A DNA stretch of 64,000 bases, from assembly GCA_001724265.1 (NCBI GenBank), contig MEDY01000105.1, forward strand, positions 1 to 64,000, given 5' to 3'. Positions within the stretch are counted from its first letter, which is position 1. The number at the start of each line of letters is the position of its first letter. Position numbers and translations under genes: made by a program. Of the stretch, positions 3 through 63,919 are shown one piece after another. Origin of the DNA: Rhizaria sp. SCN 62-66. Lineage: Eukaryota. The notes beneath the pieces were generated by a model that ran no database searches, was not told the DNA's origin, and worked only from the letters and a program-made list of their open reading frames with translations.

Positions 3-3000
3 CTGCCCGCTGCCCCCGGCAGGGCCGCCGCGCGCGCGCCGCCGCCGCGCGCCGCTGCCGCCGCTGCCGCCGCAGCCGCGGCGCAAGCGCCGCCCTCGCG
101 CCCCGCGGCCGCCACTGCGCTCTCGCGCCAGCTGCTTACACCGCCGGCCGCGCGCGCTGCCTCTGCGTCCGCCTATGCTTCTGGCGCCGCTTCGAGCGCT
201 GCAGCGCCCGCAGTGCCTGCGCCGGGCGTCGCTGGCTCCGCCCCGGCCGCGCTGCAGGCGCATCCGCCGTTTCTGGGCTCTACGTCATCAGCGTCTTCGC
301 TGTCGGCTGCAACCGCTGCAGCGACTGGCGCGGCCGCGGTTCCTGCGCTGCGGCGCGCGGCCGCGCTGCTTCGCGTGCGTGTGCCCGCGAGCGCGCTGGC
401 GCTGGCGCCGGTGTGCGCGGCCGTGCCGGCGCCCGTCGGCCCCGCCGCTTCGCTGCTGGATCGCGCTCTCCGTCGCCAGCTCACCGCGCTCTCCGCGGCC
501 CCGGTCTCAGCTTCCCCTGCGCGCACCGCCGCTGCGCGTGCGACCCGCGCTGTGGCACCACCTGCGGCTGGCCCCTTGGGCCCGACGCGGGGCATGAACG
601 ATGACTGGGACGGCGACATTGACCGCAACGGCGACACGAACTGGACCGGTATCGAAGACTGCGACAGAGACAGCGACGACGCCGCCGACTGCGGCGAAGA
701 GGACGAGGACGGCCACGGCGCGGACGCCGCGCCCGACTCGATCTACAAGGTCTGGCGTCTGCGCCGCGCCCGTGCGGCACGTGATAAGCGTGACCCCGGC
801 ACCAACGCTGATGACGGCGCGGATTGTGAGGGACGCAGCGCGACTGCGCGGCTCCGCGAGGAGCTTCTCTTTACTGTTCGCTCGCGGGAGTAGCTCTGCG
901 AGGTGCGCGATGTCAAGATCGTTGCTGCTGCGGCAAACTCAAGTGAGGCCGCTAGCACCACTGCGAGCACTGGGCACGCCAAGAGGAGGGCGCGCGCGTC
1001 CGCGGCGGCTGCGCTGCCCGCGCCGCTGGCGGTGGTGTACGCCGTGCGCGCGACGCCGCTGCTGTCCCCGCGCGCGCCGCCGGCGCCCGTGGCCGCGCGC
1101 GCCGCGGTGCCTCTGCCGGCCGCGGCCGCCACGCATGCCGCCGCACTGTCCGCGCTGTCTGTGCTGGCCGCGGCCGCGGTGCGCGACGCCCACGGGCTGC
1201 CCGCGTTCACGGCCGCGGCGGCGCTGCAGACGCTCGTGCGCGAGCAGCAGGCCGCGCTGACCGCGACAGCGGCCGCCGCGCCCAAAGCGCTCTCGGTGCG
1301 GCGCCTGCGCGCGCTGGCCGCCGCTCCCGCGCTGGCCGCGGTGCCCGCGGATGACGCCGCCGCAGTGTTATCCTGCCCGTGTCCGGTGTGCGAGTTCGCA
1401 CGCGGAGAGGGGCCCGTCGCTGCGTTTGCTGACGCATTCAATGAAACAGTAATTGCCGCGCTTGCCGTCTTCACACCCGCAGCTGCCTTGACAACACCTT
1501 TTAAGAAGGAAAGCGCTGCGGGCTCAAACGCGAGCACGAACATGAACCTGAACGCTCTCGCGCAGCCGCTGGGCACGCTGGGCCTGCGGCGCGTGCCCGC
1601 GGGCGCCGGCGCCGGGCAACTCCCGAGTGCAATGACTGGTGCCACCGGGGACTCGCTGCTGCCACGGCTGCCGCGCGTGTCGGACGACGTGACGCCGTCG
1701 CAAGACGCGATTTCGCTCTCACATGGCTTCTCATCAAACTCGTCATCGTCGTCATTGCAACCGCAGTTACCTCAATGGTCCCAGTCTCAGTCCCAGTCTC
1801 TGTCACAGCCATTACAGCAACATCTGCAGGCGGGAGCTGCTGGATTTCCGTCCTCATTCCGTTCTGCCGCAGCCCCTAATTTCGCCGGCGAGCGCGCGGA
1901 CGATAACGCGGCCGAGACAGACGCGCTCCCGGGCTCCGCTGTCAAGCGCGCGCGCCACTGGTCGTCCTCGCCCGCCGAGCCTTCGTCCCCCAGCCACTGC
2001 AGCAACGGCGGTACAAGCAGCGAGGGCGACGGGGGGTGCTGCGTGGAGCTGCCCAGCGTCGGCGTCGCGGCTGCTGCGAGAGTTCCATTGCCACCGCTGC
2101 TGGCAGATCCACGCGCGGCCACGGCGCTTGCGTCGGCCCCGTTTGCCGCTGCCGCGCGCAGCGTCTGGGGCCCTGCGCGTCGCTGCGGTCCGGGCCCCTT
2201 CCTCGCCGTGATCCCTGTGCTGCCCGCAGCGGCTGCGACGGGCGCTGACAGCAGTGCCTCAACGCGTGCAGCGCCACTGGTGTGGTGCAAGCTGCCTGTG
2301 CGGCCACCCACCGGCGCATCGCCGCTTTGCACTTGCACAAGTCCGTTATTGTCGCGGCTTTGTGCGCACTGCGACGCACTGGCCGCGGGCGAGGCCTTTT
2401 CCGACGCCTCCGCGTACGCTGCACGCGCCGCCCGCGTCCACACGTTGCTGCGCGGACTCGCTGCTGCGCTGACCTCGATTGTCTCTGCACCCGCGCGCTT
2501 GACCGCCGCACTGGCCGCGACTGGCGTAGTCAAGGGCGCGCCCGCAGCCCCACCTCTGCTGTCTGCTGCACTGTTGGCCGCGCTGGCAGCGCGCTTTGTC
2601 GCCGAGGACGGCGCTGCCGAAGCTCCACGCGACGCGGCCGCAGCCGCCGAGCGCGACGACGTCAACTCTCTGTTTTATCCCGGCGTGCTGGACTGGCTCG
2701 AGATAGTCGACGCCACCGTCAACACAGGCACTGGCAGCGGCGCGGGCAGTCCGACTGTGGGCGCGAGCATGCTGGTGAAGCTGGGGCAGCGCGACATGCT
2801 TGCGCTGCGGTGCCCGCGGCCGGGCGTGGTGCTGCCGATGTGGCTACCGGGCACCGCGAATCTGAGCGGCGCCGACGCCTTCGTCTGCGCCGGCCCGCGC
2901 GCAGTGCTTTCGGCGTTCGCGACCGGGCTCGACTACACGCGCCGCGTGCCGCTCGACGCGCTGCTCGGTAACTGGGGCCGAGCGCGCGCGCACGCCGCCG

Positions 3001-6000
3001 CTGCCGTCCTGGCGCGGCCCCGCAGCACTAAGACCTTTGCACCCACAGTCCCCGTAACTGTTGCGGCACAAAAGGCGGCAGCCACCGAGGCCATTGACGA
3101 CGAAAACGTGTTTGCACTGCCAGAACTTGAGACCACTGCAACGCGCAGCTCTAGAGACGTTACCACTGACGCCGACGTTACCATTAGCCCTGCACCTATT
3201 GATACGCTATCCCCGCGAGGGCGTCGCCGTGACCGCAGCAGCCCCTCACTGAGTGCTGCGCCCGCTCCTGGCGTCAAGCCCGCTCTGCCTGCCGCTGCCG
3301 CGCCCACTGTCACTTCAGTCACTGCCCGGCCGAATGCTCACTTGCAAGCGCAACCCCACGTGTTCACAAACTCGCCGCCGACGCTGTCGACGCGCCCCGC
3401 CGTGCCTTCGGTGCCGCTATTCTCTTCGCCACCGCTGCCTTCTCTTTCACCCTCGCATGCAGCCGCGCCCGGCCGCGCCACAGCGCAGCGCCAACGGCAT
3501 GCGGACACCGCCACAAGCGCTGCGCGGAACAACGGTCAGCATGCGCTCGCCGCGCCTTCCGCGGCCCCAGGAGACTCGACACCTGCGTCCCCAACCGTGT
3601 TTCACGGGCCTGTGCCGCGTTTTAGCCCTAGCTATAGCCCTGCTCAGCAGCGCAGCGGCCGCAGCACCGCGCACGCGTCGCCCGCGTCCGTGCGCATGTC
3701 GCCCTCGCTGCGCGCGCCGCGCCGCGTGACCGCGGACGTTGTGTTCGCCGAAGCCGACGCTGGAGTCGCGCCGCCGTCGCTTGTCTACGGCTCGCCCCCG
3801 CCACTGCCGCAGCTGACTGCGACTGCGCACGCCGTCGCGACGCCCGGCTCCCCGCGACAGAGCGCGGGGCCCGCGGTGCCGACGCCCAGCACGTTCTCTT
3901 CCCTTCTTACGCTCTCGGCCGGCGGCGCGCGCGCATACCAGCAGCTGCGGGCGCAACACCTCCCTGCCGTGGCGGCTGCGGGGGGCGGTGTCGCGACGGC
4001 GCGGGGGCGGTTCGTGGCGTTGAGCGGGGCAGACGAGACGCTTGCAGACACGGTTGACGTCGCGCTCGTGCCACGCGTCAATGCTGCTGCTGGCCCCGAT
4101 TCGATCACCGATATGTCTGCTGCTGATGTCTGGCCGAGCCCGCTGCGGACCGCACGGCCTCCGTTGACTGCTGAGCTGGTGACTGCGGCGCTCGACTCGC
4201 CCTGGGCGCGGGAGCGGTCTGCGCCTGGCACGGGACACACCGAGCTCCTCGCTGCCGCGAGCCGCGCCTCTGTCGCCGTGCTGGCCGCTTCACACGCTGC
4301 GGCCGCCGCCGACGCCGCTGCAGCAGCTACCGAAGCCGCCACCGCCCGCGAGCGTGCTGAGGCGTTCGCACGCGAGCTCGACGCCGCCGCCGACGCCGCT
4401 GTCGCGGGTGCGTTTACTGGATCAAGTCATGGTGCTGTCACAGAGACCATTAAGCAGCCTGCTGATGATGGTAAGGTCAGCATTGTTGTTGCTGAAGATG
4501 ACTCTAGGCATGACGACCTTTCCGCCGACAACCAAGAGGACAACGACGGCTCATCGAGCGGGAGTGGCTGCGGGAGCGGGAGCGAGAGCTGGAGCGACTG
4601 TGGAAGTGGCAGCGAGAGTGACGGCGAGGCGCAGAGCCCGTGGCATCCGACGCGGCCGGAGCTGCTGGTGCCGCCGCCGCATTTCACGCTTGCGCCTGCA
4701 TCTACAGCGATTCAGGCAGCGGTTGCAGGCACCGCACCCAGTTACAGGACTGCCGCTGCTGATTTCGCACCAAATGCTGCCACAGTGACGCACGCGCCGT
4801 CTGCACCGCTCGTCTCGGCGTCGCCGCTGCCGTGGCTTTGGGCTGGCTCACCGACCGCCGCGCTGGCGGCGTCGCCGCTACAGGTGCTGTTTCCGCGTGT
4901 GCAGACCTTCCTCAATGCTGCGGCCTCATCTGCGCAACAAGGCCCTTCACAGAAACCGACTGTAGGCACTCCCCCGCAGTGCATCGGTACCGTTTCTCGT
5001 ATCCCATCATTCGGCACATGCGCGCCACGCCCCTGCCCCGCGCCCGGCCCGCTGCTATTCCTGCCGACGGGCCTGCTCGCACCTGCTGTTGGCGCGGTCT
5101 CGACATGGAGCGCAGTCGCGGCTGCTCGTCTGCCGCGACAGCCATGGCAGGCTCTAGCTCCTACACACCATTCTGCGAGCACGACTCAGTCACGTTCGAG
5201 TGGGCCTCGCACCAGCATTCATTGCCCCTCTGCGACAGCTGCGCCGTCATTGTCCCCACCGTCTGGCCCCACTTTTTCTCCCACAGGCGCCGCCGCCGCC
5301 CCGATGCTTGACGGCTCTGCCCCCGCCACGCCTTCTTCCACTTTAAGCGCCACTGCGCGCGCCCATTCTGACGGAGAAGGTGACATTCTTGATGTGTCTG
5401 GCCTTGTGAATGCTATCAACCAGGCTGAGTCAGCGGCTGCAGCTCATCAGTCCCAGCCACCATAGCAGCCGCAACGACTGCCGATGGCAGCTATCATCAG
5501 CGACGTGCTGACGACTAGCTTTGAGCAATACCTCTCGTTCCTGGGTTTCCAGACCTCTGTGGCGTGCCTCAGCCATGCACAAGGACTGGCTTGCATTGCG
5601 GTGCCGTGCGATCACCGCCGCCGCGCGCGCGTCGCCAGCGTTGCTGCCGCCGCCAAGACTGCGCTAAGCGCCGCGCTTGCTACTGGCGACGCCGCGACCG
5701 CGAGCTCTGCGGCGGTTTCGGCGGCTGCGGTGATGAGCGCGGCGCTCTGCAGTGCGCTGGAGTACCCTCTGCCCGAGCGCAACGGCGAACGCGTGAGCGA
5801 GATCCTCGACGTGCTTGGCGCGCCGTATCGCGTGTGCTTCGTGGACGTGACCTCGGGCGCGACGCTGCTTGAGCTGCGGCCTGAGGACGAGCCACTTGCC
5901 GCGCAGCCGCACGCGACCGCCGCGCTCGCCGCCATTGCAGCCGCGGGGCCTGCCGCCTTAGTGAACGCAGAGGAGGTGCTTGTGCTGCTTAGCACGCCAG

Positions 6001-40299: not shown

Positions 40300-40757
40300 A
40301 CGGAGTCGAGGTGCGGGGTCGTGCTGCTTGAACGAACAAGTTGCTAAGTGAAACACAAAGAGAAATGAGAAAGACATTATTAAGAGAGAATACTTTCACG
40401 TCGTCAATGAATATTATATCTATACGTCAGAGCTAGTAACGGAGGCTGCGTCATGATATATATCTTTTTGTAAGCAATTTCCTCGTTCTCGACCCGTTGC
40501 AGAGTCTTCGTGTCGCAAAATGTTGCAAAACAGGATGCTGCGACAATTAAATGATAAATCCCACTTTTGACTTCTGCTATGGGCTTTACACGACGGATTC
40601 TGTATGCCGTGCTGTTTTACTATCTATTGGCCTCCGCCTGACCGGTATCTGCTGCGAAATGTGGGTCGTGTGATGACGCGAAGCTAACGTTACTGACAAT
40701 CAGGGCGAGATAATGGAGGCTGAATTGACCGATCCTTGCAACCCTGCGACATGACAG

Positions 40758-47479: not shown

Positions 47480-48155
47480 AGGCAAGTGTAACGCTAATGA
47501 CTCGACTCGAGTTTTTAGGTTGCGTGAATCGGTTTACATGTTCACGGCACGTAGGTCGAACGTGCGTGCCTCTGTTGGTTACGTTGTATGATGAATAATG
47601 TTATTTTCAAGGCGAATATGTTTCGTACCCGAGCTTGTTTGCTGTTTTGTATTAGTTGCACACTTCAAGTGCATCTGTTGCTGAGGCCATCATGGAGGCG
47701 ATTTGTATGGACGGATGAGTCACTGTAGAGTAATAAAATCATGTCTCAATGTATTCATGCTTCGTAAATGTAACTTCAAGTTTTTAAATCAGCTGCTTTT
47801 ATCCCACGTTTTGTTGAACTTGCAACCGACGGGTGCGACTGCAGAGACGGCCAGTTCACTGGTCGAAGCCCGGCTCACGGTCACACTGGGAATGCGCTTT
47901 CGGAACTCGCGAACTGGCCCGCTCATATCCATCAAACAAAGGAGTGTTTGCGATATGTTAAAATAATCTGCATAGTGATTTTGTATTCTAAATTAAATGC
48001 GCTATGTCCTTTTTTGGGCTGCTCTAGACACATGCGACCGCTGGCTCACTCCGCACCACTTGTTCGATCCTCGCCCTTTCGCCTAGAATCCGCTTCAAAC
48101 AACGCAACCGAACTTATATTTAAACCATCGCCACAGACACGCCGAGTTAAACGCT

Positions 48156-51100
48156 ATGTTTAACTGTTCCGCCACCATTGCGCGTCTGCGCACGGCTGGC
48201 GGCGCCCGTCTCCCGCAGGCTGCGCTGCACTCACGCCGCCCTGCGGCCGCTTCTGTCGTCCCCGCGGCCGCGGCCTCCACTACTACACAGCCCACCACCG
48301 GCATCGCACCCGCACCCCGCGCTCGCGTCGCGCGCTGCGACGCTGCCCCCGCGCTGCCCGCGGTCCCGCGCGCGACGTTCGCGACCTCTCGTCGCAACAA
48401 CGGCTCCGCAGACTCCGCTGCCTCGAGCTCCGACGCAGCCAGCCGCCCCCGCGGCCAGCTGGCAGCGGACGGCTCGGTCGACCTTGATGCGATGTTCGGC
48501 TCCGCGCGCGGCGCCGCGGGCCTCGGCAGCCACCGCGAAGATGAGGCCGCCGACGCCGAGACGCAAGAACTCATGGACCAGGTCGCCGGCCGGACGCGGC
48601 GCCCCCGCCCCCGCGGCGACGGCGCGGACGACGCCGACGACGACGCGCAGGCGGACTACCACGAGGACGACTTCTGGGACAGCGTCGAGGACGAGGGCTC
48701 GGTCACCATGAACGGCCAGGCCATGGGACTCTCGAAGGCGCAGCTGGAGGCGGTGCGCGCGGCTGCCAAGGAGCGCCGTGCCGCCCGCGCACGCGGCTCG
48801 GGAGCCAACACTGGCGTGCGGCTGCTGGACGCGGCCGAATCGGAGGTCGAGCGCGGCTTCCCCACGCCCGCCGAGGTGGCCGCGCTCGACACGCAGGCCT
48901 TCGACGTCGACGACGAGTACGCCCACGAGCTCACGCCCGAGGAAGAGAGGTACTATTTCGGCGACGCCGCCGACAGCACCGACATCGACCCGCGCACGGG
49001 GCTCCCGCGCCAGCCGCGCCGCAAGGCCAATAAGAGCAAGAAGGCCGCCGTCGATGGCGGGGAAGAGCAGGACGCTGACGCCGACGAAGATGACGAGTTC
49101 GCTGACGAGACAATTTCGCAGCGCCGCCGCCGCCTGCGCCCGCCGCAGCTGCCGGATGACCGCGCGACGTCCAAGGCCGTGCTGCGGTTCGCGCGCACGG
49201 TGCCCGGCGACGCGCCATTGCCGCGCGACCTGCAGGTGCGCGTGAACCAGATCCTGCACGACGCGCAGTACAAGAAGGGCCGCGACGAGCACTTCTTCGC
49301 TAAGGACCTCGAGGTGTGGTACGTCGCCAACCGACTCCCCGTCGTGTTCTCAGTGCTGCGCCGCGTGCTGACCGAGGTGTCAAACCGCGTCCCCGGGTTC
49401 GCGCCGCGCAACGTGCTCGAGTTCGCCGCCGGCGCCAGCGCGGGGCTCTGGGCCACGCGCGAGGTGTTTTACCAGGACTTCGCTAAGTACACGTGCATCG
49501 AGCGCGACGGCCGGCTCGCGCTCATGGGCCAGCAGCTCACCTCGGATCTGGGAGTACACATCGTGTACCGCCCGCGCCTGCCCACGCTCGCCACGCTCGA
49601 GGCCGAGGCGAGGGCGCACGCCGAGGCGCAGCGCCGCCGCCGCCGCCGCGGCGCGCCCGTGTTCGTTAAGAACGCCCCGCCGCCGATGTCTGCGGGCGGG
49701 CAGGATCTGGTGATTGCGGCCTACGCGCTGTCGAAGCAGCCCAACGCCGAGTACCGGCGGCAACTGCTCGAGGCGCTGTGGGAGCAGGTGAACCCCGACG
49801 GCGGGCTGCTTCTGCTCGTCGAGTCCGCGGACCAAACGGCGCACGGCTTCAACGTCATCCGTGAGTCCCGCGACTACCTGCTCCGCAAGTACCCTTCCGA
49901 CGCCGCGCGCGAAGCGGTCGGCGGCGGGAAGCTCGGCCGTTTCCACAGCAATGAGGGTGCGGAGCCTGCGGCGACGGCGGTGCTGCCCTGCGCGCACGAC
50001 AAGCCGTGCCCGATGGGCGCGATGCAGGAGCTCAAGGAGGAGTTCTACAAGCTGCGCGCGCGTGCGCGGCTGCAGCAGGAGTACGTGTCGATCCCGCGCG
50101 TACCGCTCACGGTGTGCAAGTTCGGCGAACGCATGCTGCGCAAGCCGCTGCCGTCACAGTCGCCGCTGCAGGACCTCCGCATCCCCGCCCACCTGGGCGA
50201 CGCGGTGCTGGAGAACTTCTCCTATGTCGTGCTGCAGCGCGGCCGCCCGCGCTCGCTGCCCGCCGACGCCTTCGACCTGGAGCCGCCGCCGCGCGAGGCG
50301 CCGCCAGTGCTGCACCCCGTGGTGGACTCGGTGGCCGCGGAGCAGGAGGAAGCCACGGCGCGCGCCGCCGTCGGCTACGAGGCCATCGTGTCGGCGCGCG
50401 CGGCGGCCGAGGCCGCGCTGGGGCTGCCGCAGACGCGCATGCCGACGCTGCTGGATCTGGGCTACACGCCTTCGGAGACGGCCGTGAGTAACCCGCTGAT
50501 GTTCGCGTCGCGCGCGCCCGGGGCCGCGCCAGAGTTCGAGGTCATGACGCGCACGCCGGGACACCCGCGCAGCGCCGCCGAGGCCGCCGCCGCGACACCG
50601 CCCGCGCCTGTGTATGGAAACCACAGCAACAGCGAGGCCGGCGTGGCGGCCGCGACTGCGGCTGCGGCAGCTGCGGTGGCCGCCAACCCCCTCTTGGCCG
50701 GCAACGTCCCCGCAACTCTCGCTGATATCGGTAGCAGCACCGGCGGCGCTAGCCACCGCAGTCTGGCCACGGTCGGCCAGCGCTTCCCCGAGACCCTGGC
50801 GCCGCCCGCGAGCGCGGGCCCCGCCCTGGCGCTGTCGGGGCTGCGGCCCGAGGATTACTCGAGCGACAACGTGCTGCGCGCGCTGCCCACGGTCGCGCTC
50901 GCCGCGCTTAACGCGCTGACGGCGCTGGACCCCATGGCGGCCAAACTGCTCGCGCGCGACCTCTTCGGCGGCGCGCGCGTGGACCTGCAGGGTGACGCCA
51001 AGCACCAGGGCACGACGCGCAAGGACAAGCTCGCGGCCCGCGCGCTGCGCGCGATGCTCGAGGCCGAGCGTGCCTCTGCGCTTGGCGTGGTCGACGCCGA

Positions 51101-54100
51101 GGACGCCGAGGAAGAGATTGACCCCAGAGACCTCATCGGCCACTTCTCGCACGGCGACGCCGCCGAAGACGCGCCAAGCGAGCCCGCGGTGAACCCGAAG
51201 GAGATGTTTTACAAGCAGCGCTGGGCGCGCGTAATCTCGCCCGGTCTCAAGCGCGGCGGCCACGTCATCGTGGACCTATGCACGCCCGCGGGCACCGTGG
51301 AGCGCCGCGTCATCGGCCGCAGCAAGGTCGGCGCGGCCGGCTACAAGCACGCGCGCACGAGCCGGTGGGGCGACCTGTGGCCCTACGAGCACGTGCGGTC
51401 ACGCAACGACCTCAAGCGCGAGCAGGAGCTAGCGCGGGTCCAGGCCGACCTCGAGATCGCCGACTCGCGCGAAGCTCTGGCCAAGCTCAAGGAGATGCGC
51501 ACCATCTTCGGCGCGCTCGCGGGCGCGGGCGAGGCCGCCGCGGCGGCGCCGCTCAAGGAGCAGATGATCGAGGGCTTCAAGGCCGTGGACGCGGCCATCG
51601 TGCGCGACATGGAGGCGCGCGACCGCGTGGCGCGGCTGGCGCAGAAGGCGGCCGACGAGCGGGCCGCCGCGGCCGCAGCCAGCCAGGCCGCCGTCGCTGG
51701 CGCCGCCGCAGACCTCGCCTCCGCGAGCGCGGAGCTCGAGGAGCTGGCCGCGGCCGAGGCCGCCGCCGCGGTCGGCGCGGGCGCAAGTGCTGAAGAGCGC
51801 CGCGCCGCGCTGGACCGCGCGCGCCTCGCGCTGGGGCTCTCCACCGCGGGCTCCGCCGACGAGATCGAGGACCTGGTGGGCGTCGGCCGTGGCGCGCGCG
51901 GACGCACCGTGCTGTCGCGCGGCACCGACGACCTGGGGCCCGCGCCCGTGAACGTCGGGCTCGGCGCCGCGCACACCGCCGTGGAGGAGGACGAGGACTG
52001 GATGCAGGCCGAGGAGGACGACCTGATCGCGCTGGAGAACCAAACTGAGGAGGAGTGGCTCGAAGGGCTGCCCGACCACCTGCGGAACAACCCGCAAGCC
52101 GTGGCGGAGCTGCGCAAGAGCGACCTGGAGATCCGCGCCATCCGCGTCCGCGAGCACCTTAAGCTTAAGTCCGCGCTCGGTTTCCTCGAGAAGGCCGAGG
52201 AGGCCGCCGAGGCGCCGCGCGTGCCGCTGTCTCCGCGCGCCGCGGCCGCTAAGCGCGCCGCCGACGCTGCCGCGGCCGCGCTGGCCGCCGCCGATGCCAC
52301 CGGCGAGGACGCGTCGCTCGCGCATGCCAAGGCGATCCTGCGCGCGCAGGAGCCCGAGTTCGAGGTGACGGCCGGCGGCGGGCTGCGGCCCGCGCGCGTG
52401 GACCGGCACCGGCTCGCGGCCGAGGCGCGCGCGCTGGCCAAGGAGATCAACGACCCCTTCGCGGCGAGCGCGATCCAGGACGTGCGCCAGGCCTATCGCA
52501 TGGCGCTCGCGGCGCAGAAGGAGGGCCGCGCCGGCGCGCTGCCGCAGCCCGACGCTGTGGACAAGGCGCTCGCCGCCCGCCGCGCCGCCGACGCCGGCGC
52601 CGCGCCGCTCAACCCGGCGCGCGCCAAGGCCGCTGCGGCTGCTGCGGAGGCCAAGGCCGCCGCGGCTGGGCCCGCGTCCGCGGTGTCGCCCGCCGAGGCC
52701 GCTGCGCTGCTGGCAGCCGCGCACGCCCGCGCCGCTGCCGCCGGTGGCGTCAGCGCAAGCAGCGCTCGCGACCCCTTCGGCACTGCGTCCGCGCACCTCT
52801 TCGCCAGCGCGGACAAGGCCGCTGCCGCCACCAGTGCTCCCGCCTCTGCCTCTGCCTCGGCGCGCAACCGCAGTGCGGAGAGCGCGCTGGACGCGCTCGA
52901 GTCCGCGGCCGGGTCCGTGCGCGGGCTGGGCAGCGACGCGGCCTCGCGCGACGCCGACTTCGCGGGCTTCGACGTCGACGACGACGACGACCGCTTTGCC
53001 GACGACATGGCCGACCTGGACGACATCGACGCGCTGTTCGAGAGCTTCGCGCAGCGCGGCATCGAGGGCCGGCCCAGTGACGTTGCCTTCGCTGCCCCCA
53101 AAGTCCCCGCACCGGCGCCCGCGGCCACAGCCGCGCCCCGCGCCGTGCCGCAGCTCGCGATGGCGGACTTGTCCGAGTTCGAGGCCCTGCTCGCGCCCGC
53201 GCTGGCCAAGACGGCCGTCATGCCCTCTGCAGCCAGCCTCGCGCCGGGCGCCAACACCGCCGCCGCTGCACAGGCTGCGCCGAAAAAGATGAGTCTGCGC
53301 GAAACCATGCAGAGCACGCGCGCGTTCCTCAACAACGCCGGCTCCAACGCGAGTGCAAGCGGCAAGAGCACTGCGCCGGCGACCACTCGCCAAAGCGAGG
53401 CCTTCGCTGACGAGGCCCTCGAGGCGGGCGCGCTCGACTCTGTCGGCGCGGGCGACCAGTTTGACGAGCGCCAGCGCCAGCGCCGGCTGCAGAAGTTTGG
53501 CTCCGTCGAGCGCGGGGCCGACGGCGGCGCCACGGTTACGCTGCGCGGCAAGGCCGCCGGCCACGCCCCTCAAACGACGCTCACGCAGCAGCAGCGCGCC
53601 GCCGGCGTAAGCAACACCACTAGCGCTCGCCCCGAGTATGACGACTACGGGGTCGACGCTGATGAAGGCGACGAGGGCGACTACGAAGACGTCGAGGACG
53701 TGCTCAGCCGCGCCAAGGCCCCCAGTGCCTCCGACCTCAAGCGCCAGGCCAAGGCCAAGCGCGCCGCAAACGCTGCCGGCAACGCGACCGCTGGCCCTTC
53801 CGGCCGCCGTCGCTACTCGACAGTGGTTGCGCAGGCGCTGTCCGTGCCCCTGCCCGTCGTCGCGCTCTCTGCCGCCGCTCCGCACCTCGGCGCCGGGCTC
53901 GGCATGGGCCTCGCTGCGGCCCGGTCCGCGCTGCGGCCGATCACGGTCGCGCCCCTGCGCTTGTTCGCGTCGTCCTCGGCTGCGTTCGGCCGCCGCAGTG
54001 CCGCGGCGGATGACACTGACGCGGTGCTGCGCTCGCTGCTGCGCGACGACGACGACGGGCCTGTGTCCGCCGGCAAGAGGCTGCTGTCGCCCGCGCAGGC

Positions 54101-57100
54101 GTTTGCCAGTGACGTGTAGGTGGACTTCCCGGCCACCTCCTCACCGGCTACGGCCCGCCGCGCGCGCGTGTCCGCGACCGCCACCGAGACTGCGCGCGCG
54201 GCGACTGACCTGCGCGAGCGTGCAAAGCAGTCGAATGAAGTACAGTTCACGAACCGCGGCGACGCGACTTCCCGCACGCGCAACCGGCCGCTGACGCCCG
54301 CCGAGCTGCAAGCGCTGGTGCGCCCCATCGGCTCGGCGCGTGAGGGCGACCCCGCGAGGCGCACAGAGGGCGGCTTCGTCTTCAACGTCATGCCCGGCGC
54401 GTACACCACGGTCGGCATGCTCGCTTCGGCCGCCGCGTCGCAGCAGCTGCACAGCCGCGCCGCAGGACTCAACCTCGCGCCACCGCTCTCGGCCGCAGCC
54501 GCGGACGCCGTCGCGCGCGCTGTAGGCCCTGCGGCCGAACCCGCGCCGCAACACGTGCCTCTGCGCAGCCCGTCGCACCGCTACAGCGCGCTGGTAAGCG
54601 AGCGGAACCCGTACACGCCACCGCCCGTGGACCGCAGTCGCGGCGCGCACGGCGGCGTGGACCTTACGTGGTACCCCTCCGCCGACTCGCTCGCCGCCGC
54701 CGACGCCGCCGCAGAGGCTGCGAACGTGGACCGCACGGACGCGGCCGCCGTGGGGCGCGCGCAGGCGCGTCTATTGCGCGGCCGCGCTATCGCCAAGACT
54801 GCCGCCGGTGGCGCTAAGGCCGTTTCGTCGCCGGCGGCCGGCACGTCGGGCGTGACTGTTGACGCGCGCGGCGCTCGTAGCTTCCGCGACAAGTTCGGCA
54901 ACGTCTTGTCCGACAACGAGCTGGACATCGGCGAGTCGCAGCGCGTCGTGCACAGCGACGGCACGGTCGAGTACGTGCCGCCGGGCCGCACGCCGCGCGG
55001 TGTGCGCGGCCGGTCCTCGCTACCCAACCGCGAGCAGAACGACCAGATCGACGTCGACGATTTCCGCCGCGTGATCGCGATGCGCCGGCTCGAGGACGAC
55101 GCCGAGGCGCTGAAGACCAACGCCAACGGGCGCCTGCTGGGCGAGCACGGCGAGGCCGGCGGACCAGTCAAGTCGCTCTACGGCGTGTCGCGCGAGGAGC
55201 GCGAGTCTCGCCGTGAGGAGCGCAAGCGCATCAAGGCGGCGCAGTTCCGCTTTCGCATCGAGAAGGGCCGCAAGTCGCTGATCGAGGAGGCCGGCGGCAA
55301 ATACTCGCCCAACGCTGGCATCCGCGCCGTTTCGCGCGCCGAGGCGCAAGCCGTGTTCACGCACGCGAGCGAGGAGCTGCTGCGGCGCGACGGCCTGCTT
55401 CCGCCCTCTGCCGATGAGCGCGACGCGGAGCAGCTCGAGCGCGACTACGACGAGGAGCTCGAAGACGAGTGGCACAACGACATGCAACTGGTGCCGCTGA
55501 CGCCCGAGGGCGAACTCGACCTCTCTGGCACGGCGGCGTCGCAGGCGGACCCCCGCGCGGTGACCAAGCGCGACATGCGCCGTGACCGCGCCATCGTCGA
55601 AGACTATGAGTCGCACCTGCAGCGCGTGGAGATGGTCGAGTCCGGTGAGCTCGTCGAGGGAGACGACGGCTGGAACATCCACCAGGCCGCGCAGCGCGTG
55701 CGCGAAAACGCCCCCGCGTCCGCGCGTCGGAGCATGGACATTCTCACTAACCTGCTCAAGAAGGATAGCATGCCTGAGACCGTCACGGCGGGCACCAACG
55801 GCATGCCCGTGCCCCGGTCCGCCGCTGAAGCCCTTGCGCAGGCGGAGGCACATGCCGGGCTTGCACCCGCACCCAGCGCTGCTGTCGCTTCTGCTAGCAA
55901 TCACGGCTCAGCCTCCTCCGGCTCCGGCGCCTCTGGCTCCGGTGCTGGCGCTGCGGCTGGCGGCAGCAGCAACGGCGACGACGCCGATGCCGATGCTGGT
56001 TCATCGTACTTCCCTGCTGCACGCGCTGCTCGTATGGCCAAGAAGCAGCGCGCGCTTTCGGGCGTCGCTCGTGTGGCTGCGGTTGCGGACGCATCGCGTT
56101 CACCACTCGAACGCTCCAACGAGGCAATTCTGCTCACCGGTGTTCCGCATGAGGCGTCTTCCGCCGCTGCCGCAGCGGCTGCTGCTGCCGCTGACGCTGT
56201 GACGCGTGCGGGCGGCTCCAGTGCGCACCGTGATACGCTTGCCGCGGCCGCGCACATCACGACGACGCTGGGCGAGGCCGATCAGCGTCGGCAGGCGCTG
56301 GCGCAGGTCGCGCAGGAGCGCCTGCTGCACCCTGGGCGCGTGCGCTCGGCCGCGGAGGTCGGGCTCGCGCTCGAGGCGATGCTGGGCGCGCCTGAGACGC
56401 AGCGCATGTTGAGCGACGCGGGCGCTGCGCAGAGCGCGGCCTCGGGGCTGTCGGCGCCGGTGGAGGCTGCGAAGGCGACTGCCGTAGCCGCGGGCCGTCT
56501 TCGCGAGCAGGCGCAGCGCACCGCTGCTGTTGAGTCCGCCGTCGCGAGCGTGGCCATCCGCACCATGTCTCTTACGCAGACGCTCGACGGCATGCGCACT
56601 GACGCCGCTGCTCCCCCCAAGCGCAGTTCACGCAAGGATGCTGCTGCTGATGTTGCGCCTGTTGCTCCCGCTGCTGTGTCGCCACGCTTGGCCGAGCTGG
56701 CGAAGCGCTACGACGCGCTGCGTGCGCGCGAGGCCGCTGCGATGCGCGCCGAACAGGAGCGCTTCATGCCGCTCTCTAAGCCGTCGCTGGGCCACGCGTG
56801 GACCGCGAAGAACAAGGTGGTGAGCAAGTTCGACGAGGCCAACCTCGAGGCAGCTTCCATGATGTACCGTGCGCGCGCCCACCGCGCCCTGACTGCGAGT
56901 CTTGAGGAAGAGGACATGCTGCGCCGCCTTGGCGACAAGAACCTGGCCGCCCTGATGCCCTCCCCGGACGCTCCTTTGAGCGGTGGCGACGACGACGAGA
57001 ACCTGCTCGAGGACGCCGTCATGTTCGAGCGCCAGCTGGCCGACGCCGAGGCGCACCTCAAGAACGTCGTGGCCGCCGGCGCGCGCTCTGCGGAGCGCAA

Positions 57101-57263
57101 GATGGAGCGCCAGGCCGCGGGCAAGAGCGCTGCGCGTCGCACGATTGAGGACCTGGCTGCCAAGAACGCCGAGAAGGTGCGTCGTCGCGAGGCCCTTTTC
57201 AACATGCCCGCCGCCGACATCGTGCAAAATGTGCCCTTCAAGAAAGGTGGCGGTCGCCGGTGA
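48156..57263 (+). CDS. RSM22: Mitochondrial SSU assembly factor RSM22/METTL17-like with a very long C-terminal extension (~3035 aa if TAG 54117-54119 is sense; 1987 aa otherwise)
   Basis: Arg/Ala-rich presequence. Family motifs RLPVVFSVLRRVLTEVSNRVPGFAPRNVLEF, DLVIAAYALS, GGLLLLVES, PCAHDKPCPM, CKF, FSYVVLQRG, WARVISPGLKRGGHVIVDLCT, YKHARTSRWGDLWP. ORF 54120..57263 follows the TAG directly in-frame with no ATG and no intergenic DNA, and ends at TGA before an AT-rich UTR. Confidence 0.85.
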
Positions 57264-57482: not shown

Positions 57483-59837
57483 TTATGCTGCGACGCGCTT
57501 TTTCTTCATTGCGGCAAGCTCGTCTTGCAGCTTACGCGTCGCCGCGCGCGCCTGAGCCAACCTTGCTGCGGCTGCGGCTGCGCCCTCGGCCGTGGAGCCA
57601 TCCTCGGTCGCGAGCGCCGTGGGCACCGGCGGCGGGATAGCAACAGCGGCGACCCCCCCATCCGCAGCGACGACGCTGGCGACCGTGAGCACGCGCCGCA
57701 GCGTCTCGGCCTCGGCGCGCGCGGCCGACAGCGCCTCCTCCCTGCGCGCGAGCGCGGTGCGGTGCACCGTCGCGCGGTGGGCCAGCTCCTGCTCAGCAGC
57801 GGCCGCACCGCGCTGCGCCGCCGCGGTCGCAGCAGCCGCGGCCTCGGCGTCGGCCCCTGCGCGCCGCGCCTGGCTCTGCGCAACTGTCACAGTGTTGGCG
57901 AGAGCGGCGCGCTCGGCCTCAGAGGCCAGCAGCGCGCTCTCGAGCGACGCGATGCGCTCAGCCTGCGCAGCGAGCTCGGCAATCAGCGGGGCTTCGCGGG
58001 CCTGCGTGCGAGAGTACGCCGTGCGCTGCGACTGCTGCGCAGTCCGAGCCTGTGTAAATATATATGTGGGTCAGACCGATAATGTTGAGTTTGGAAGTGT
58101 GAGCATGATTCATGTGATGACTTAGCGATTCAACACCGTCATTTGCCACACAAGCACATTTGGGAATATGTAAGATAATGCCTACCTTTAGCTGTTCAAG
58201 CTCAACTTCTGCCGTCGCGCGCGCATGCGCCTCTGCGGCCAGCTGCGAGTGCAGACGCGCCAGCGATGCTGCATGACCCTCGGCCTGAACCTGTGAATGG
58301 ATCGCAAATCCAAGGGTAAGGGAGCACAATATGTAAGACGATAAGAGAGTGAGAATATGCAAAGTTTGACACAAAAAGTAATAAAGCAGACACAATTTTA
58401 CATTTCATGATAATAAACAAAGAAAACACAAAAATTCTGCGTACCTGCATGAGCTCCAGCAAGTGTTCCTGCTTCTCTTTGGCGACAACGTCCGACTCGC
58501 CCACCACAGCCGCCGCGGCAATAGCAGTCTGCGTCTCTTGCTTGGCGACCGCGGCCTCAGCCCTGGCAGCCTCGAGCGCGCCCGTCATGGCCGCCTTCTC
58601 CGCCGTCAGCGTTTTAGCCCTGCGCTGCGTGTCCTCGGCCCACGCGCGCGCCTCGCCCAGCGCGGCCTCGAGCGCCTCACGCTGTTCCCGCTGCGCGCGC
58701 TGCGCCTGCGCGATCGCGGTCTCCACGCCCGTCGCCGCCGCGGTACGCAGCGCCGCGTTTTCGGTCTCCAACTCCGCGCGCGCGCTCTCAGCGCTAGCCG
58801 CGCGCCGTTGCAGCGCCTGCGCAGAAAGCTCGGCGGCGTGCGCGCGCGCCTCGGCGTCGGCCATGCGCGCCTGCAGGTCCAGCAGCAGCGACGCGGTCGC
58901 CGCGGACAGGCCGTTGTTGGCGCTGTTGCCGCTGGCGCTGGCAAGCGCGGCAATCTGGGCAGCAGCGGCCGTGGACGATGACATGTCGGCCACCGGGGCG
59001 GGCATTGGCTGCTGCTGTTGCTGCTGCTGCTGAGGCTGTTGTTGCTGCGAAGGCTGCGCGAAGGCGGGTGCAGCGTCCTGCTGCGCGGGGTGCGCAAAGC
59101 TGTCGTTGAGACTGGACGCGTTTGACGACGAGCGGTTCAGCGCAGCGGCCGCGCGCGCCTGCTGCATGCGTTGCGCCAGACTCAGCCCACCGGCCGACGG
59201 GGTCGGTCCTGGGGCTCGCTGCTGCGGCTGCGGGTCGGGAGCGAAAGGCGCCGCAGCAGCAGGTGCAAGGACAGCGGGGGCGTTATCAGACTCATAGTTG
59301 TCGTACGAGTCGTTCTGCTGTTGTTGCAACTCTTGCTGCTTCGCCATCTGTATCTGCAGGCGCTGCATAATCGACAGTCCTTGCTGTGGTTGCTGCTGCT
59401 GTTGTTGTTGTTGCTGCTGCATTTGCTGTTGCTGTTGTTGCGCAATCTGCTGCTGCTCACGCTCCTGCTGCTGCATCTGCTGCTGCAGCTGCGCGCTCTG
59501 TTGCTGCTGCATCTGCAACTGCTGTTGCTGCGCCGGAGTCGGCTCGATCGTGATCGGCTTCAGCCGACGCTTGCGCGGCGAGCTCGCCATCACGCTCATG
59601 TCCAACGAAGAGTCGAGCATGCTCATGTTCCCACCGCCGCCGCCGCCGCCGCCGCCAAGGCTGGCGCTGCTGTTGCCGAAGCCCGGGGCGCGCGCGGAGG
59701 GCGGCGCGGGTGCGTGGGGCGCGTGACCGTGGGCGTTGTAGGCCGCGGCCGCTGCGCCCAGGCTGGCGAACGCGCCGCTCATGCCCGCGCCGGCGGGGTT
59801 CATGCCGGGCGGCAAGTACTGCTGCTGCTGCTGCTGT

Positions 59838-59880
<43 letters not shown>

Positions 59881-61996
59881 TGTGCTGCTCTTGTTGCAGC
59901 TGCGACTGAGCCCGATCCTCACGGCTCGACTTCTGGGCGCGGCGGCCTGACTTCAGCGGCGACTCAGGGTCGTCGTCGTCGAGCGCGTCCCAGCCGGCCG
60001 ACGCCGTGCTCGCGTCGAGCCCGCTGCTGCTAGCGTTCGGGGCGTTGCGTATAGAGCGCGACTGCGAGTTATTGTGGTGGTCATTGTTCTGCCCCTGCAG
60101 CGAGCTCAGTGCGCCGAACGCGCCCGCCTTGGTGGTCGCGGGCGCCGCACCACCGTTGCCGCTGCCCCCGTTGCTGTTGCTCTGCTGGCCCGCGGCAGTG
60201 GCGGGCGAGGGTGGGGGCAGCGTGCCGCCGTTCTGGACGTACATCGCGCGGTGCTTCGCTAGCTGCTGCGGGGACAGGCCGAAGCGCTCCTCGGACTCGG
60301 GCCACTCGTCGTCGTCCTCCGGCTCTGCGCCGGCCGGGGAAGTGGGGTCGCTGTGCTTGGGAGAGCGGTTGCCACCGCGGGACTGCTGCTACTGCTGCTG
60401 CTGCTGCTGCTGTTGCGGTGGGAGGTTGCGGTGCGGTGGCGTCTGCTCCGGTGTGGTGTTGCTGCCCCAGTACCCGTCCTCCTCCTCTTCTTCCTCGTCC
60501 GCGGCATTCACGTTATCGGCGCGATTGGCGTTACCACTGCTCTTCGGCTTCGCGGGAGTCTGGTCGAACTGCTGCTGCGCCTGAGGCTGGGGCTGCTGCT
60601 GCTTACGAGGCGGCAGATACGAGTCGTCGAGCGCCATGCTAGAGTCGGGCGACGTCGGGGGCGTCACCGCGCCGCCGCCAGCGCCGGGCGGGGCCGCGAC
60701 GGCCGCGCGCGCCGCAGCGAGCGCCGCCGCCATGCCCGTCAGCGGCGGCACCGTGGCCACGGCGGCCGCCGCGGCGGGGTTGCCGGCAGCGGACTGCGCT
60801 TGGATGCCGTTGCCGCTGCCGTTGGCGGGCTCCGCGATGGTGGCCTCGCCCCAGAGGGTGACCTCCAGGTGCGAGTCGTCGATTGGAGCCCTCTGCTACT
60901 GCTGCGGCGGTTGCGGTTGTTGAAGCTGCTGCTGGAGTTGCTGCTCGAGCTGCTGCCGCTGCGCCTGCTGCCACAGCGCCGTGCGCGGCGACACGGCCCC
61001 GCTGCCGTCGCCCTCGCCCGCGCTGAGGCTGCCGCTGCCGCTGCCGCTGCTGCGCCGCCCGCGGCTCCGGCTGCGCGACCCCGAGCCCGCCCCCGAGCCC
61101 GGGCCGGAGCCGGAGCCGGAGCCTGCGCTGCGGCCGCGGCCGGTGTTGGGCGGCGACGCCGCGGGCTGCGAGCGCAACGACTGCTCGTGCGAGAGCTGCG
61201 CCTGGTGCAGCGCGGCGACCTGCTCCGCCGCGGCGGGCGCCATCGCGCTCACGGCGGCCGCGGCCGGCGGCGGCGGCGCCGAGTCCACGGCGTAGCTCGC
61301 GCCCGACGCGCGCGCGCGGAGGCGCCGCGGGGACACCGCCTCGTCGTATGTGCCGGACTCGCCGCCCGCGGGGCTCGCGGCCGCTCCGACTGCGGCTGTG
61401 GAGGCAGCGGGGGCCTGAGGGGGCGCGTGGGACGTCGAAAGCGTTGTGGACAGGTCAAGCACGCTGTTGTCGATGCCACCGACGGCTGCAGCAATATTCG
61501 GAGCGTGCGCGTTGAAACCAAGATTGTTACTGCTTGTTGAAGGAATGCCTTGGTAAAGGTTTTGCTGTTGCTGCGGCGCCGCATTGCTGTTGTTGCTGTT
61601 GATAGGAGCAAAGTGGAACCCGCTCGCGACAGCAACAGGGACTTGTTGCGGCTTGACATCCGCGCCACGCGGCCTAACATCTGGCCCCGGGCCGCCCACT
61701 GTCATCTCCATCATTGTCGAGCCCAAGTCAAGCATCGTCTCCTCTCCGGCACTTGCGCCAACAGCGCCCACCGCGGGAGCGGGAGCAACATCAGCGGCAG
61801 CGGCTCCAGTCGGCATGACGCTGTTGTTGCCAAAGTCGCCAAACGTCATCGTGAGCCCAACCGTCTCGTCGGCATTGTTATTGGGGTCATTCGCGGCAGG
61901 CAGGCCCAGCGTGGGGCCGGGACCGCGGCGCGTGCTCACGGTCATCGGCGCTGCACCGGCCCGCGCCTGCGCCTGCGCCTGCGCCTGCGCCTGCGC

Positions 61997-62029
<33 letters not shown>

Positions 62030-62283
62030 AGCCTGAGCAGCAGCGGCGGCCGCGGCAGCCGCCCTGGCGCTGGCCTTGGCCCTGAGCGCGGCGACGCTGC
62101 CGGCGGCCTCTCTGGCATCCTCTTCGTCGTCGTCGTCGAAGGTCAGGATCGACCGCGTCGCCGCCTCGTCGTCGTACTCGCCCTTGTGCGACGCTGCCAC
62201 GGCCGCGGCGGCGGCCGCGGCGGCGGCGGCCGCAGCGGCCGGGGACGGCGACGGCGGGCGCAGATATGCGTGCGCTGCTGTCG

Positions 62284-62314
<31 letters not shown>

Positions 62315-63919
62315 CTGAGGCGGCGGCGTGTAGCCGCGCGCGGGCGGCGGCGTCACCGCGCCGTGGCTGTGCGCGTTGGTGCCAAGGCCGCTGCTGTTCA
62401 GCCCGCCGACGCTCGCGCTCAGCGAGAGGCCGGTGCTGCTGTTCGCGGCCGCGGCGGCAGCGGGCGGCGGCGTGGAAGTTATGCCACGCACAGGCACCGC
62501 GATGGGCGGGGTTTGGCCCCGGTGCGGGGGCGGCGTCTGCCCGCGGTTGAGCTGCTGCTGCTGTTGCTGTTGTTGCTGAAGCTGGAGAAACTCCTGCTGC
62601 TGCCGCTGCAGCTGCTGCAACTGCTGCTGCTGCCACAGCAACTGGCCGTGGGCGTCCTGGGGCGGACCATGCATCAGCGCCTGCTGCTGCTGCAGCTGCT
62701 GCTGCTGAGGGTCCTGCGCCTGCGTCTGCTGCAGCGGCGACTGGAGCTGCTGCGGGACGGCGAAGGCGAACGCGGGCACAGGCGCGGTGCCCGGCGCGGG
62801 GGACGGGGCGCGCGCGCTCGAGCCCGCGCGCCGCAGGGACAGCGACGACTGCGACTCGTCGACCGCGCTGGCGGCAGCGCCAGCGCCCGGGTCGGGGTTT
62901 GCCGCGTGCGCGCCCGCCGTCGCCGTCGCCGCCGCCGCCGCCGCCGGGGCGGGGCCGAAGGGGCCGGGGGACGGCGGCCGGCTGCCGGGCCGTGACCCCG
63001 CCCCCGCCCCGGCCGCGCCCTGGGCGCTGGCGCTCGCAGCGGACCCATGGTTGGCGACGTGCGACTGCGACGGGTGGAGCGACGAGTGCGACACGCTGGC
63101 GCCCGAGCTGCCCAGCCCCGCGAACATGATTTCCTGCGCGTCGGCCACAAGCGCGAGCCACGTGCTCAGCGCGTCGCGCGAGGGAATCACACCGGGCTGC
63201 GACAGGCCCGTGCTGGCGGCGGCGGGGACGCGGACCTCGAGCGAGGCAGCGAGGCACACCGAGAGTGCCGCGGGCGTCATCAGCGTCGCCGCCTGGTTGT
63301 GCAGCACGGCCGCCAGCAGGCGCGCCAGGCGGGCTGTAAGGCGCGCGCGGTCAGGCGCCATGCGCTCGGCGGCGTCGCGGCACAGTGCAAGCGCGCGCGC
63401 GCGGTCCGCGGGCGCGGCGGCGGCGGCGGCGGCGAAGTCGGCCATGATGCACGCGCCGGGCAGCGGCTCCGGCAGTGCGCGGAGCAGCTTCTTGAGCAGC
63501 GACGCCACGGTGTGCGGTTCAACGTGCGGGACTGGGACGCCGCGGGGCAGCACGGACTTGCCTGCGAGCACGGCGTGGTAGAGCTCGTTGACGCGCTCGC
63601 CGTGACCGGGCACGCGGAACAGCCCCTCGGCGCGCGTGCCGTTGTCCTGCAGGTAGTCGATGCACTGGCTGATCGCGGTGGCCACAGGCGCGGGGATCGG
63701 AAGCGGCTCGCCGGGCGGTAGCGTGCACGCGCCGTCGAAGCTGGAGAGCAGGCGCAGCCATAGCAGCTTCTCAGGCTCCGAGTCGGCGCGGAAGAGCAGC
63801 GAGGTCGTCTTGTCTTTGTTGCTGGGCAGACGCGCGGGGGAAGTGCCCAGCGCGGGGGAGGGGAGGTCCATCATGACGACCTGGAACTCGCCGGGGTCGT
63901 TGTCGATGCCTTGCCCGCC
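57483..63919 (-). CDS. PH-RhoGAP protein with polyQ low-complexity middle and C-terminal coiled coil; 5'-truncated; exons 63919-58445, 58290-58186, 58049-57483 (>=2048 aa); in-frame TAG at 60898-60896 and 60391-60389
   Basis: PH C-terminal helix LLFRADSEPEKLLWLRLL. RhoGAP motifs QCIDYLQDNGTRAEGLFRVPG (Arg finger) and HTVASLLKKLLRALPEPL. Track ORFs 60896..63976, 60389..60760 and 58202..60244 share one frame broken only by TAGs. Two phase-0 introns lead to the last exon, which ends in TAA. Confidence 0.82.
58050..58185 (-). other. RhoGAP gene intron (136 nt)
   Basis: AAG|GTAGGC...CTGAC...TTACACAG|GCT; AT-rich, phase 0. Confidence 0.85.
58291..58444 (-). other. RhoGAP gene intron (154 nt)
   Basis: CAG|GTACGC...TTCACAG|GTT; AT-rich, phase 0. 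Confidence 0.85.
59819..59878 (-). repeat. PolyQ (CAG/CAA)20 tract; further polyQ tracts at ~59010-59530, ~60383-60415, ~62000-62030 and ~62280-62710
   Basis: (CTG/TTG)n on the plus strand, in frame with the RhoGAP gene. Confidence 0.9.

Follow-up and report, generated by a model that had tools for sequence, protein, structure and literature searches.

UAG as a sense codon, probably for glutamate, in the GC-rich nuclear genome of a eukaryote with one glutamate-type tRNA(CUA)

Main finding

In the nuclear genome of Rhizaria sp. SCN 62-66, UAG is almost certainly a sense codon, and UAA and UGA serve as the stops. The residue specified by UAG is probably glutamate, a reading that concerns the code alone and gives the codon no part in autoregulation. 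As a rule, UAA and UAG nearly always change meaning together. One such TAG lies in a polyglutamine run of a RhoGAP gene, within the 64,000-nt stretch of DNA that was analysed (the window), and, to judge from the sequence, it is one instance of a genome-wide reassignment of UAG from stop to sense.

The genome (G000) is that of an uncultured single-celled eukaryote and comprises 34.9 Mb in 714 contigs, with GC-rich coding DNA. Half or more of the words of its eRF1 gene are present in six runs from bioreactor, wastewater and sludge; the organism or its close kin occur in these settings. A single kinase, whose best named match is to Plasmodiophora brassicae (58%, versus 50% or less for others), gives a weak hint of an affiliation with Rhizaria.

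A TAG in the polyglutamine run of a RhoGAP gene

As the initial annotation claimed, the minus strand from 60415 to 60380 reads CAA (CAG)7 TAG CAG CAG TCC. The frame downstream of this TAG also runs on for the ~1.9 kb described there: the GT donor at its end, position 58444, is reached after 1,944 nt, and two phase-0 introns follow (Table 1). Upstream, the TAG shares its frame with the Pfam RhoGAP domain. In this frame the long exon contains 197 CAG, 44 CAA and 2 TAG codons, with 0 TAA and 0 TGA; the remaining two frames contain 32 and 24 TAA/TGA. Three further in-frame TAGs connect long frames elsewhere in the window, and the context is Q-rich for three of the five window TAGs.

No splice signal had been seen at the site, and indeed the DNA 5' of the TAG has a GC content of 0.65 and contains no in-phase donor. 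The sole good donor-like site upstream, GTAAGC, lies 215 nt before the TAG and is out of phase with it (phase assigned by hand). Therefore, no intron removes the window TAG.

Table 1. Coordinates of the RhoGAP gene, of in-frame TAG codons and of the tRNA(CUA) gene; positions are those of the window unless a locus is named.
Feature	Position	Strand	Basis
In-frame TAG within the polyglutamine run	60389..60391	-	sequence and frame analysis
CAA (CAG)7 TAG CAG CAG run	60383..60415	-	sequence
Another in-frame TAG of the long exon, Q/P-rich stretch	60896..60898	-	sequence and frame
RhoGAP gene, long exon of 5.5 kb: RhoGAP domain, low-complexity Q/A/S/G, start of A/E/R-rich helical tail	58445..63919	-
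RhoGAP gene, first exon	beyond the window on the same contig (G000 C105), ~64.2-64.4 kb	-	by eye (L202)
RhoGAP domain PF00620, sets the reading frame	63239..63676	-	Pfam, E 4.7e-23
GT..AG intron, phase 0, GC 0.34	58291..58444	-	sequence prediction
35-codon exon	58186..58290	-	sequence
GT..AG intron, phase 0, GC 0.40	58050..58185	-	sequence prediction
Last exon, true stop TAA at 57485-57483	57483..58049	-
In-frame TAG, different gene with a 2,516-codon frame	891..893	+
Second in-frame TAG of the 2,516-codon-frame gene, Q/P-rich	5463..5465	+
In-frame TAG, long Rsm22-domain gene (TGA end at 57263)	54117..54119	+
In-frame TAG of the eRF1 gene	L001:1594-1596	-
tRNA with CUA anticodon	L036:1489-1561 = G000 C84:76008-76080	-	ARAGORN; Rfam RF00005, 58 bits

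In-frame TAGs and gene ends across the genome

A coding model was trained on 60 stretches of 10 kb together with the window (664 kb in all). In 94,563 codons flanked by coding signal on either side, the in-frame stops consist of 17 TAG, 0 TAA and 0 TGA, and 14 of these 17 TAGs are located outside the window. Strict settings give a TAG:TAA:TGA ratio of 4:0:0 in 50,667 codons. The same filter applied to 349 kb of other loci yields 8 TAG, 1 TAA and 1 TGA in 24,693 codons, and the survey of gene ends contains one TAA that is followed by coding signal. UAG occurs at a frequency of ~1 in 5,500 codons. No enrichment of TAG in weakly codon-biased regions, or depletion in strongly biased genes, was detected (p 0.51).

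The clean gene ends (n=78) comprise 46 TAA and 32 TGA with 0 TAG, for a 95% upper bound for TAG of 3.8%. Five calls of a gene ending in TAG were discarded, four as antisense readings and one as an internal site. Dual use of UAG of the Condylostoma type, both inside genes and at their ends, was not found at any of the 78 ends.

Protein families give a similarly sparse picture. Eleven of 142 kinase matches (tallied without two matches that hold TAA/TGA only) have a TAG, which is exon-internal in five, a splice acceptor by eye in four, and intronic in two. No exon-internal TAG was found in 42 DEAD and 19 SNF2 matches, two mixed-stop SNF2 matches being left out; the sole TAG in a DEAD match is a splice acceptor. 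None of ten additional TAG sites lies inside a Pfam domain above the cut-off, in a scan run without L089, L110, L224 and the window sites at 891 and 54117.

A standard code, with the TAGs due to mistakes of assembly or to nonsense alleles of genes in decay, is very unlikely. The genome is derived from a metagenome, the base at 60391 is known from the assembly alone, and one TAG-bearing ORF (L183) looks mobile or decaying. However, error or decay should yield TAA and TGA as well, and the observed ratio is 17:0:0. In addition, the gene ends lack TAG, a dedicated tRNA(CUA) is present, and the TAG of the single eRF1 gene recurs in cDNA from two other studies. Thus, the in-frame counts, the gene ends and the eRF1 cDNA bear out the proposal that TAG is tolerated in frame, both at the polyglutamine site and genome-wide. 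That site had also been called the clearest evidence, but eRF1, the stops used at gene ends and the tRNA(CUA) are all far stronger.

The annotation had suggested comparing TAG with TAA/TGA in CAG runs. This test is confounded twice, by strings that read in the wrong frame and by unequal mutational distance from CAG. The string CARCARTAGCARCAR has 462 matches genome-wide, and a polyglutamine-plus-TAG string is by itself not rare. When 94 of these matches were examined (from 100 listed of the 462), 64 fell in Ser/Asn frames, 19 in antisense Ala/Thr frames, 3 in same-strand Ala/Val frames and 8 in Gln frames. A frame-blind count therefore misleads: 86 of the 94 look-alike strings are read in non-Gln frames, mostly as AGC/AGT serine (AGT in AGC runs). 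Furthermore, by the arithmetic of the genetic code, CAG becomes TAG by a single transition but TAA or TGA by two changes. Genome-wide, TAG is commoner in Gln runs (about 39, interval 17-74) than in acidic runs (2 clear cases, or up to 6, of 22 matches), which bears against Glu to an extent set by the mutation rates. Many of the TAGs probably derive from CAG. The CTAG core of a (GAC)n/(TCG)n repeat (L215; G000 C140:47369-47382) places TAG in frame on both strands.

The eRF1 gene

The eRF1 gene (L001; G000 C63) consists of 441 codons, with an in-frame TAG at codon 111, which corresponds to human position 107. A search of the genome finds one eRF1 gene; the other matching locus is pelota-like by eye. 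A spliced eRF1 contig from run X5, in which the first intron is removed, spans the TAG with 0 differences from the DNA, and so does a polyA-RNA contig from run X7. These two runs come from two studies other than the source. A further run, X3, also matches the eRF1 DNA and was left uncounted, as it may be refiled data of the source study; an identical intron-bearing metagenome contig (L149), perhaps from the same source, was given no weight. Because the X5 and X7 contigs match the DNA at the TAG, the UAG is retained in spliced eRF1 mRNA, and the site is neither an assembly error nor an edited position.

Repair of UAG in the mRNA, whether by editing (U-to-C, giving CAG, or A-to-I, giving UGG) or by splicing, is thus hardly credible. 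Nothing found speaks for it positively. Against it stand the agreement of the spliced X5 and polyA X7 contigs with the DNA (for one gene, and in contigs, which drop rare variants), the window TAG, which no in-phase intron can remove, and the Pkinase scores, in which Trp is lowest or joint lowest at all three kinase sites.

Relative to 117 homologs, the eRF1 protein carries the changes T32S, G57S, T58K, L124M, L126M and K130Q, and it retains NIKS, E55 and S70. Position 32 is T in 117 of the 117. The nearest homolog (P0004, 84%) has T58K in common but keeps T32, and a metagenome search for eRF1 relatives yields 31 loci at 45-69%. The accessible text of Panek et al. 2017 (PMC5304391) describes a bond between T32 and the G of UAG, and a glycine at this position in Iotanema; in the portion available of PMC4381064, yeast does not survive with T32A, and readthrough is reduced by E107A. 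T32S may therefore weaken the recognition of UAG.

The position of the TAG within the eRF1 gene raises the possibility of an early-stage code, in which eRF1 would compete with a single tRNA-Glu(CUA) and limit itself through its own UAG at codon 111. More eRF1 would then mean more truncation at this codon. Autoregulation of bacterial RF2 is a parallel for such a feedback sensor. The TAG directly precedes the only AAA among the gene's 32 Lys codons. However, the chance of at least one TAG in a gene of this length is 7.5%, codon bias around the TAG is average, and a related contig in run X4 (one contig, depth 4.9) reads GAG AAG at the site, all of which bears against autoregulation and makes it quite unlikely. 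Plant eRF1 is autoregulated by readthrough and NMD, as set out in the available part of PMC5397192; there too a release-factor mRNA could sense termination efficiency, whereas the candidate sensor here would be a UAG in frame within the coding sequence.

A tRNA with a CUA anticodon

A search with a CUA anticodon-loop pattern gives 21 matches, and ARAGORN was run on 19 loci, the other two matches repeating a tRNA-Leu. It calls exactly one tRNA(CUA), which is single copy in the genome. The gene has a T run at its 3' side and adjoins a formin FH2 gene; the ORF on its other side is presumably VPS39-like. The tRNA is 73 nt long, with a 4-nt variable loop, U1-A72 and G73, versus G1-C72 and U73 in the tRNA-Gln of this genome.

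Comparison with the genome's own tRNAs, a set taken from 63 scored of 506 tRNA candidates, gives an anchored identity of 42/63 to Glu(CTC), 36 to Glu(TTC), 32 to Asp, 28 to Gln(CTG) and 24 to Gln(TTG). Within the acceptor stem, 11 of 14 match Glu(CTC) versus 2 of 14 for Gln. E-values are weak for matches outside this genome, but the trend is the same: 8/8 of the E. coli matches listed and 12/16 of the annotated phage-collection matches listed are tRNA-Glu, with 0 tRNA-Gln in either. The tRNA also carries U11-A24, U13-G22, A46 and A37 and has no base 47, features that are glutamate determinants in E. coli according to the accessible portion of PMC9976931 and that may not be determinants in eukaryotes. 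The D-arm determinants are also present in the genome's own tRNA-Gln(CTG), and C36, another E. coli glutamate determinant, is necessarily lost in a tRNA(CUA). By these measures the predicted tRNA is Glu-like and not Gln-like, and it presumably descends from tRNA-Glu. No Gln-derived tRNA(CUA) is found among the 21 pattern matches of an assembly that may be incomplete.

Pyrrolysine, the label that ARAGORN assigns to CUA by default, was rejected for this tRNA, as U1-A72 here differs from G1-C72 in tRNA-Pyl; in the part available of PMC9976931, the determinants of tRNA-Pyl are G1-C72 and G73. A tRNA-Leu(CUA) of the exLh type, with a long variable arm, was likewise rejected given the 4-nt variable loop. 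Apparent divergence of the D arm or the acceptor stem is seen in several of the genome's tRNAs (L067:1489-1561, L008:573-654), and in tRNA-Ala(AGC), ATC replaces TTC in the T loop.

Which amino acid is encoded by UAG

The homolog columns at TAG sites are divided, four Glu/Asp versus four Gln. At the eRF1 site, the 117 homologs have E in 106, D in 10, V in 1 and Q in 0; since the V is carried by the nearest homolog, this column varies within the clade. The related X4 contig, at a depth of 4.9, has GAG at the position of the TAG, which would agree with Glu. At a TAG of the Nudix gene L103, E is present in 3 of 6 homologs, the nearest included, and a second TAG of that gene is opposite E in the nearest homolog (by eye). 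The TAG in the hinge of kinase L076 aligns with D in two paralogs; a homolog search with this kinase returned no matches. Gln is found at the TAG of the CaMK-like kinase L068 in the nearest homolog (81%; Q 17, K 14 and E 3 among the best 50), at that of the NEK-like kinase L069 in human NEK1, and opposite two TAGs of the ubiquitin/S74-domain ORF L183.

Pfam scores of variants at five sites hardly separate the two residues (E minus Q = +0.2 bits summed; at the Nudix site Q scores 0.7 higher). Leu falls under Glu at all five, and at the three kinase sites where all seven residues were scored with Pkinase, Leu, Tyr and Trp lie 0.3-3.1 bits under Glu. Such scoring would exclude Leu, Tyr and Trp, but not Gln or Lys. 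The flanks of 15 non-window TAGs are intermediate and depart both from pure Glu (p 0.036) and from pure Gln (p 0.022).

The two kinds of column are not equally informative. The CAG to TAG transition would arise readily whichever code applies, and the homolog-tested Gln columns are probably the variable ones. If UAG were Gln, however, GAG to TAG would entail a transversion plus a substitution, making four of the eight sites, the acidic ones, hard to obtain. The acidic columns and the type of the tRNA therefore favour Glu over both Gln and mixed decoding. A tRNA-Glu-derived tRNA(CUA) would be charged by glutamyl-tRNA synthetase and insert glutamate at UAG, and the T32S change in eRF1 would weaken UAG recognition so that this tRNA wins. 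The source of new UAG codons would be GAG, with a silent change, or more frequently CAG, where C>T would replace Gln with Glu. Such a replacement would be tolerated at disordered or variable positions, for example in the RhoGAP polyglutamine run, which would read QQQQQQQQ-E-QQ. The Gln that the context of this run had implied is doubtful, given that the tRNA(CUA) is of the glutamate type and that disordered polyglutamine would tolerate Gln or Glu. The change of code appears to be young, because UAG is so rare and T32 persists in the nearest eRF1 homolog.

Glutamine, the meaning of UAG in Iotanema, is an unlikely choice here. It would call for charging of the tRNA(CUA) by GlnRS, or for an unassembled tRNA-Gln(CUA), and would make CAG to TAG silent. 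This reading would account for the four Gln columns, for the Q-rich text around the window TAGs and for the TAGs in Gln runs, whose number is roughly the share expected if TAG is distributed like CAG; in E. coli, moreover, the central U35 permits charging of amber suppressors by GlnRS (PMC9976931, portion available). On the other hand, the acceptor stem of the sole tRNA(CUA) is of the glutamate type and its base 73 is G, and the flank composition rejects pure Gln. Glutamine would also require E>Q at two Nudix sites and at an eRF1 column in which no homolog has Q.

A second unlikely reading is that of an ambiguous intermediate, with UAG decoded mostly by the Glu-type tRNA(CUA), partly by first-position mispairing of tRNA-Gln(CUG), and partly by eRF1 as a stop. 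The product would be a mixture of Glu and Gln with some truncation, consistent with the even 4:4 split of the homolog columns, and in yeast a near-cognate tRNA inserts Gln at UAG. The rarity of UAG and its absence from the exons of the DEAD and SNF2 matches, the single copy of tRNA(CUA) versus at least five tRNA-Gln(CUG) loci, and the mildness of the T32S change would also agree. However, weakly biased regions show no enrichment of TAG, the 78 gene ends are without TAG, and a cognate tRNA normally outcompetes near-cognates. Thus, glutamate remains the probable meaning of UAG.

Comparison with known codes

As described in the accessible text of Panek et al. 2017 (PMC5304391), UAG is Gln in Iotanema spirale and Leu in the rhizarian exLh. 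In both, as here, UAG alone is sense and UAA is still a stop. The same eRF1 residue is changed in Iotanema (T32G) and here (T32S), whereas L69, which is A in exLh (L69A), is unchanged here. A tRNA with a CUA anticodon was predicted in that work, and such a gene is present in this genome. It differs from what those two codes would use in being of the Glu type with a short variable loop, and UAG is very rare here. The Gln-derived tRNA(CUA) of an Iotanema-type code was not found, the identity of the tRNA(CUA) being 28 and 24 of 63 to tRNA-Gln versus 42 to tRNA-Glu. A Leu code of the exLh type agrees neither with the Pfam scores, in which all five sites place Leu under Glu, nor with a tRNA that has no long variable arm.

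In the part available of McGowan et al. 2024 (PMC11687900), UAG is Leu or Gln in phyllopharyngean ciliates, and UAG = Ser is cited for Scotinosphaera. UAG-only recoding there is to Leu, Gln or Ser, with UAG = Glu only alongside recoded UAA. The phyllopharyngean cases likewise involve UAG only, a suppressor tRNA(CUA) and metagenome-assembled genomes; the genome here differs in being GC-rich, in its introns of 130-290 nt, and in ending its genes with TAA and TGA.

Glutamate is the meaning of UAG in codes that also recode UAA. In Oligohymenophorea sp. PL0344, UAG is Glu and UAA is Lys (McGowan et al. 2023, PMC10553269, as far as accessible). Its tRNA(CUA) genes are likewise most like tRNA-Glu (69-93% in PL0344), but they number ten and UAA is sense there, whereas here there is one tRNA(CUA) and UAA is the main stop. 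In Blastocrithidia (PMC12153298) and peritrich ciliates (PMC11687900), UAR is Glu according to the portions available, and a CUA-anticodon tRNA-Glu decodes UAG as Glu; therefore, an anticodon A36 is compatible with glutamate charging. These lineages recode UAA too, under AT pressure in Blastocrithidia, whereas the genome here is GC-rich with no in-frame TAA established. A UAR = Glu code is at odds with the 0 in-frame TAA among 94,563 codons and with TAA as the end of 46 of 78 genes. A code in which UAG is Glu while UAA and UGA remain stops was not found in the literature searched, which lay outside subscription journals and supplements. At the level of sequence, the genome appears to have what a UAG-only nuclear reassignment predicts (in-frame UAG, gene ends, mRNA, tRNA and eRF1 changes), with residue columns that split 4:4.

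Other loci

Two further long frames of the window are of note. An intronless frame of 8,610 codons (12844-38676, +), taken to be midasin from its AAA and acidic/VWA layout, has 0 TAG versus ~1.5 expected. The Rsm22 (mitochondrial ribosome) domain occurs in a ~3,050-codon frame (47997-57263, +) with one TAG and a TGA end, presumably far longer than is usual for Rsm22. A fragment in the AT-richer spacer (40700-41420, +) resembles by eye a decayed membrane segment of an ABC transporter, with apparent frame breaks.

Elsewhere, TAG is in frame four times in 700 nt of the Nudix gene (L103:3078-3773, +; G000 C44), a density far above that of the genome. Besides an unknown domain in two copies, the AT-richer ORF L183:1-2088 (+; G000 C681) encodes ubiquitin and Peptidase_S74 chaperone domains, and it is perhaps mobile or virus-derived. 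The ubiquitin genes L181, L182, L184 and L185 are single units with several differences from canonical ubiquitin by eye, and no head-to-tail polyubiquitin or polyubiquitin junction is assembled among the ubiquitin loci. A match to the SSU rRNA model (L148; G000 C706:4459-8903) extends over 4,445 nt versus 1,831 positions of the model, an excess that points to large insertions or introns.

Implications

This genome unites a suppressor tRNA, an eRF1 substituted at its contact to the G of UAG, gene ends free of UAG, and very low use of UAG. The lineage would be the second, after Iotanema, with a substitution at eRF1 T32. In a GC-rich genome, AT pressure cannot drive such a change, and the organism may serve as a test case for codon capture versus ambiguous-intermediate models. 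Annotation under the standard code would truncate genes at about a thousand sites, eRF1 included (scaled by inference from 15 per 84,216 codons). Given the occurrence in bioreactor and sludge, metaproteomes or cultures may be reachable. If UAG is indeed Glu, a new nuclear code table would be needed; if it is Gln, the genome would represent a new independent origin of that code.
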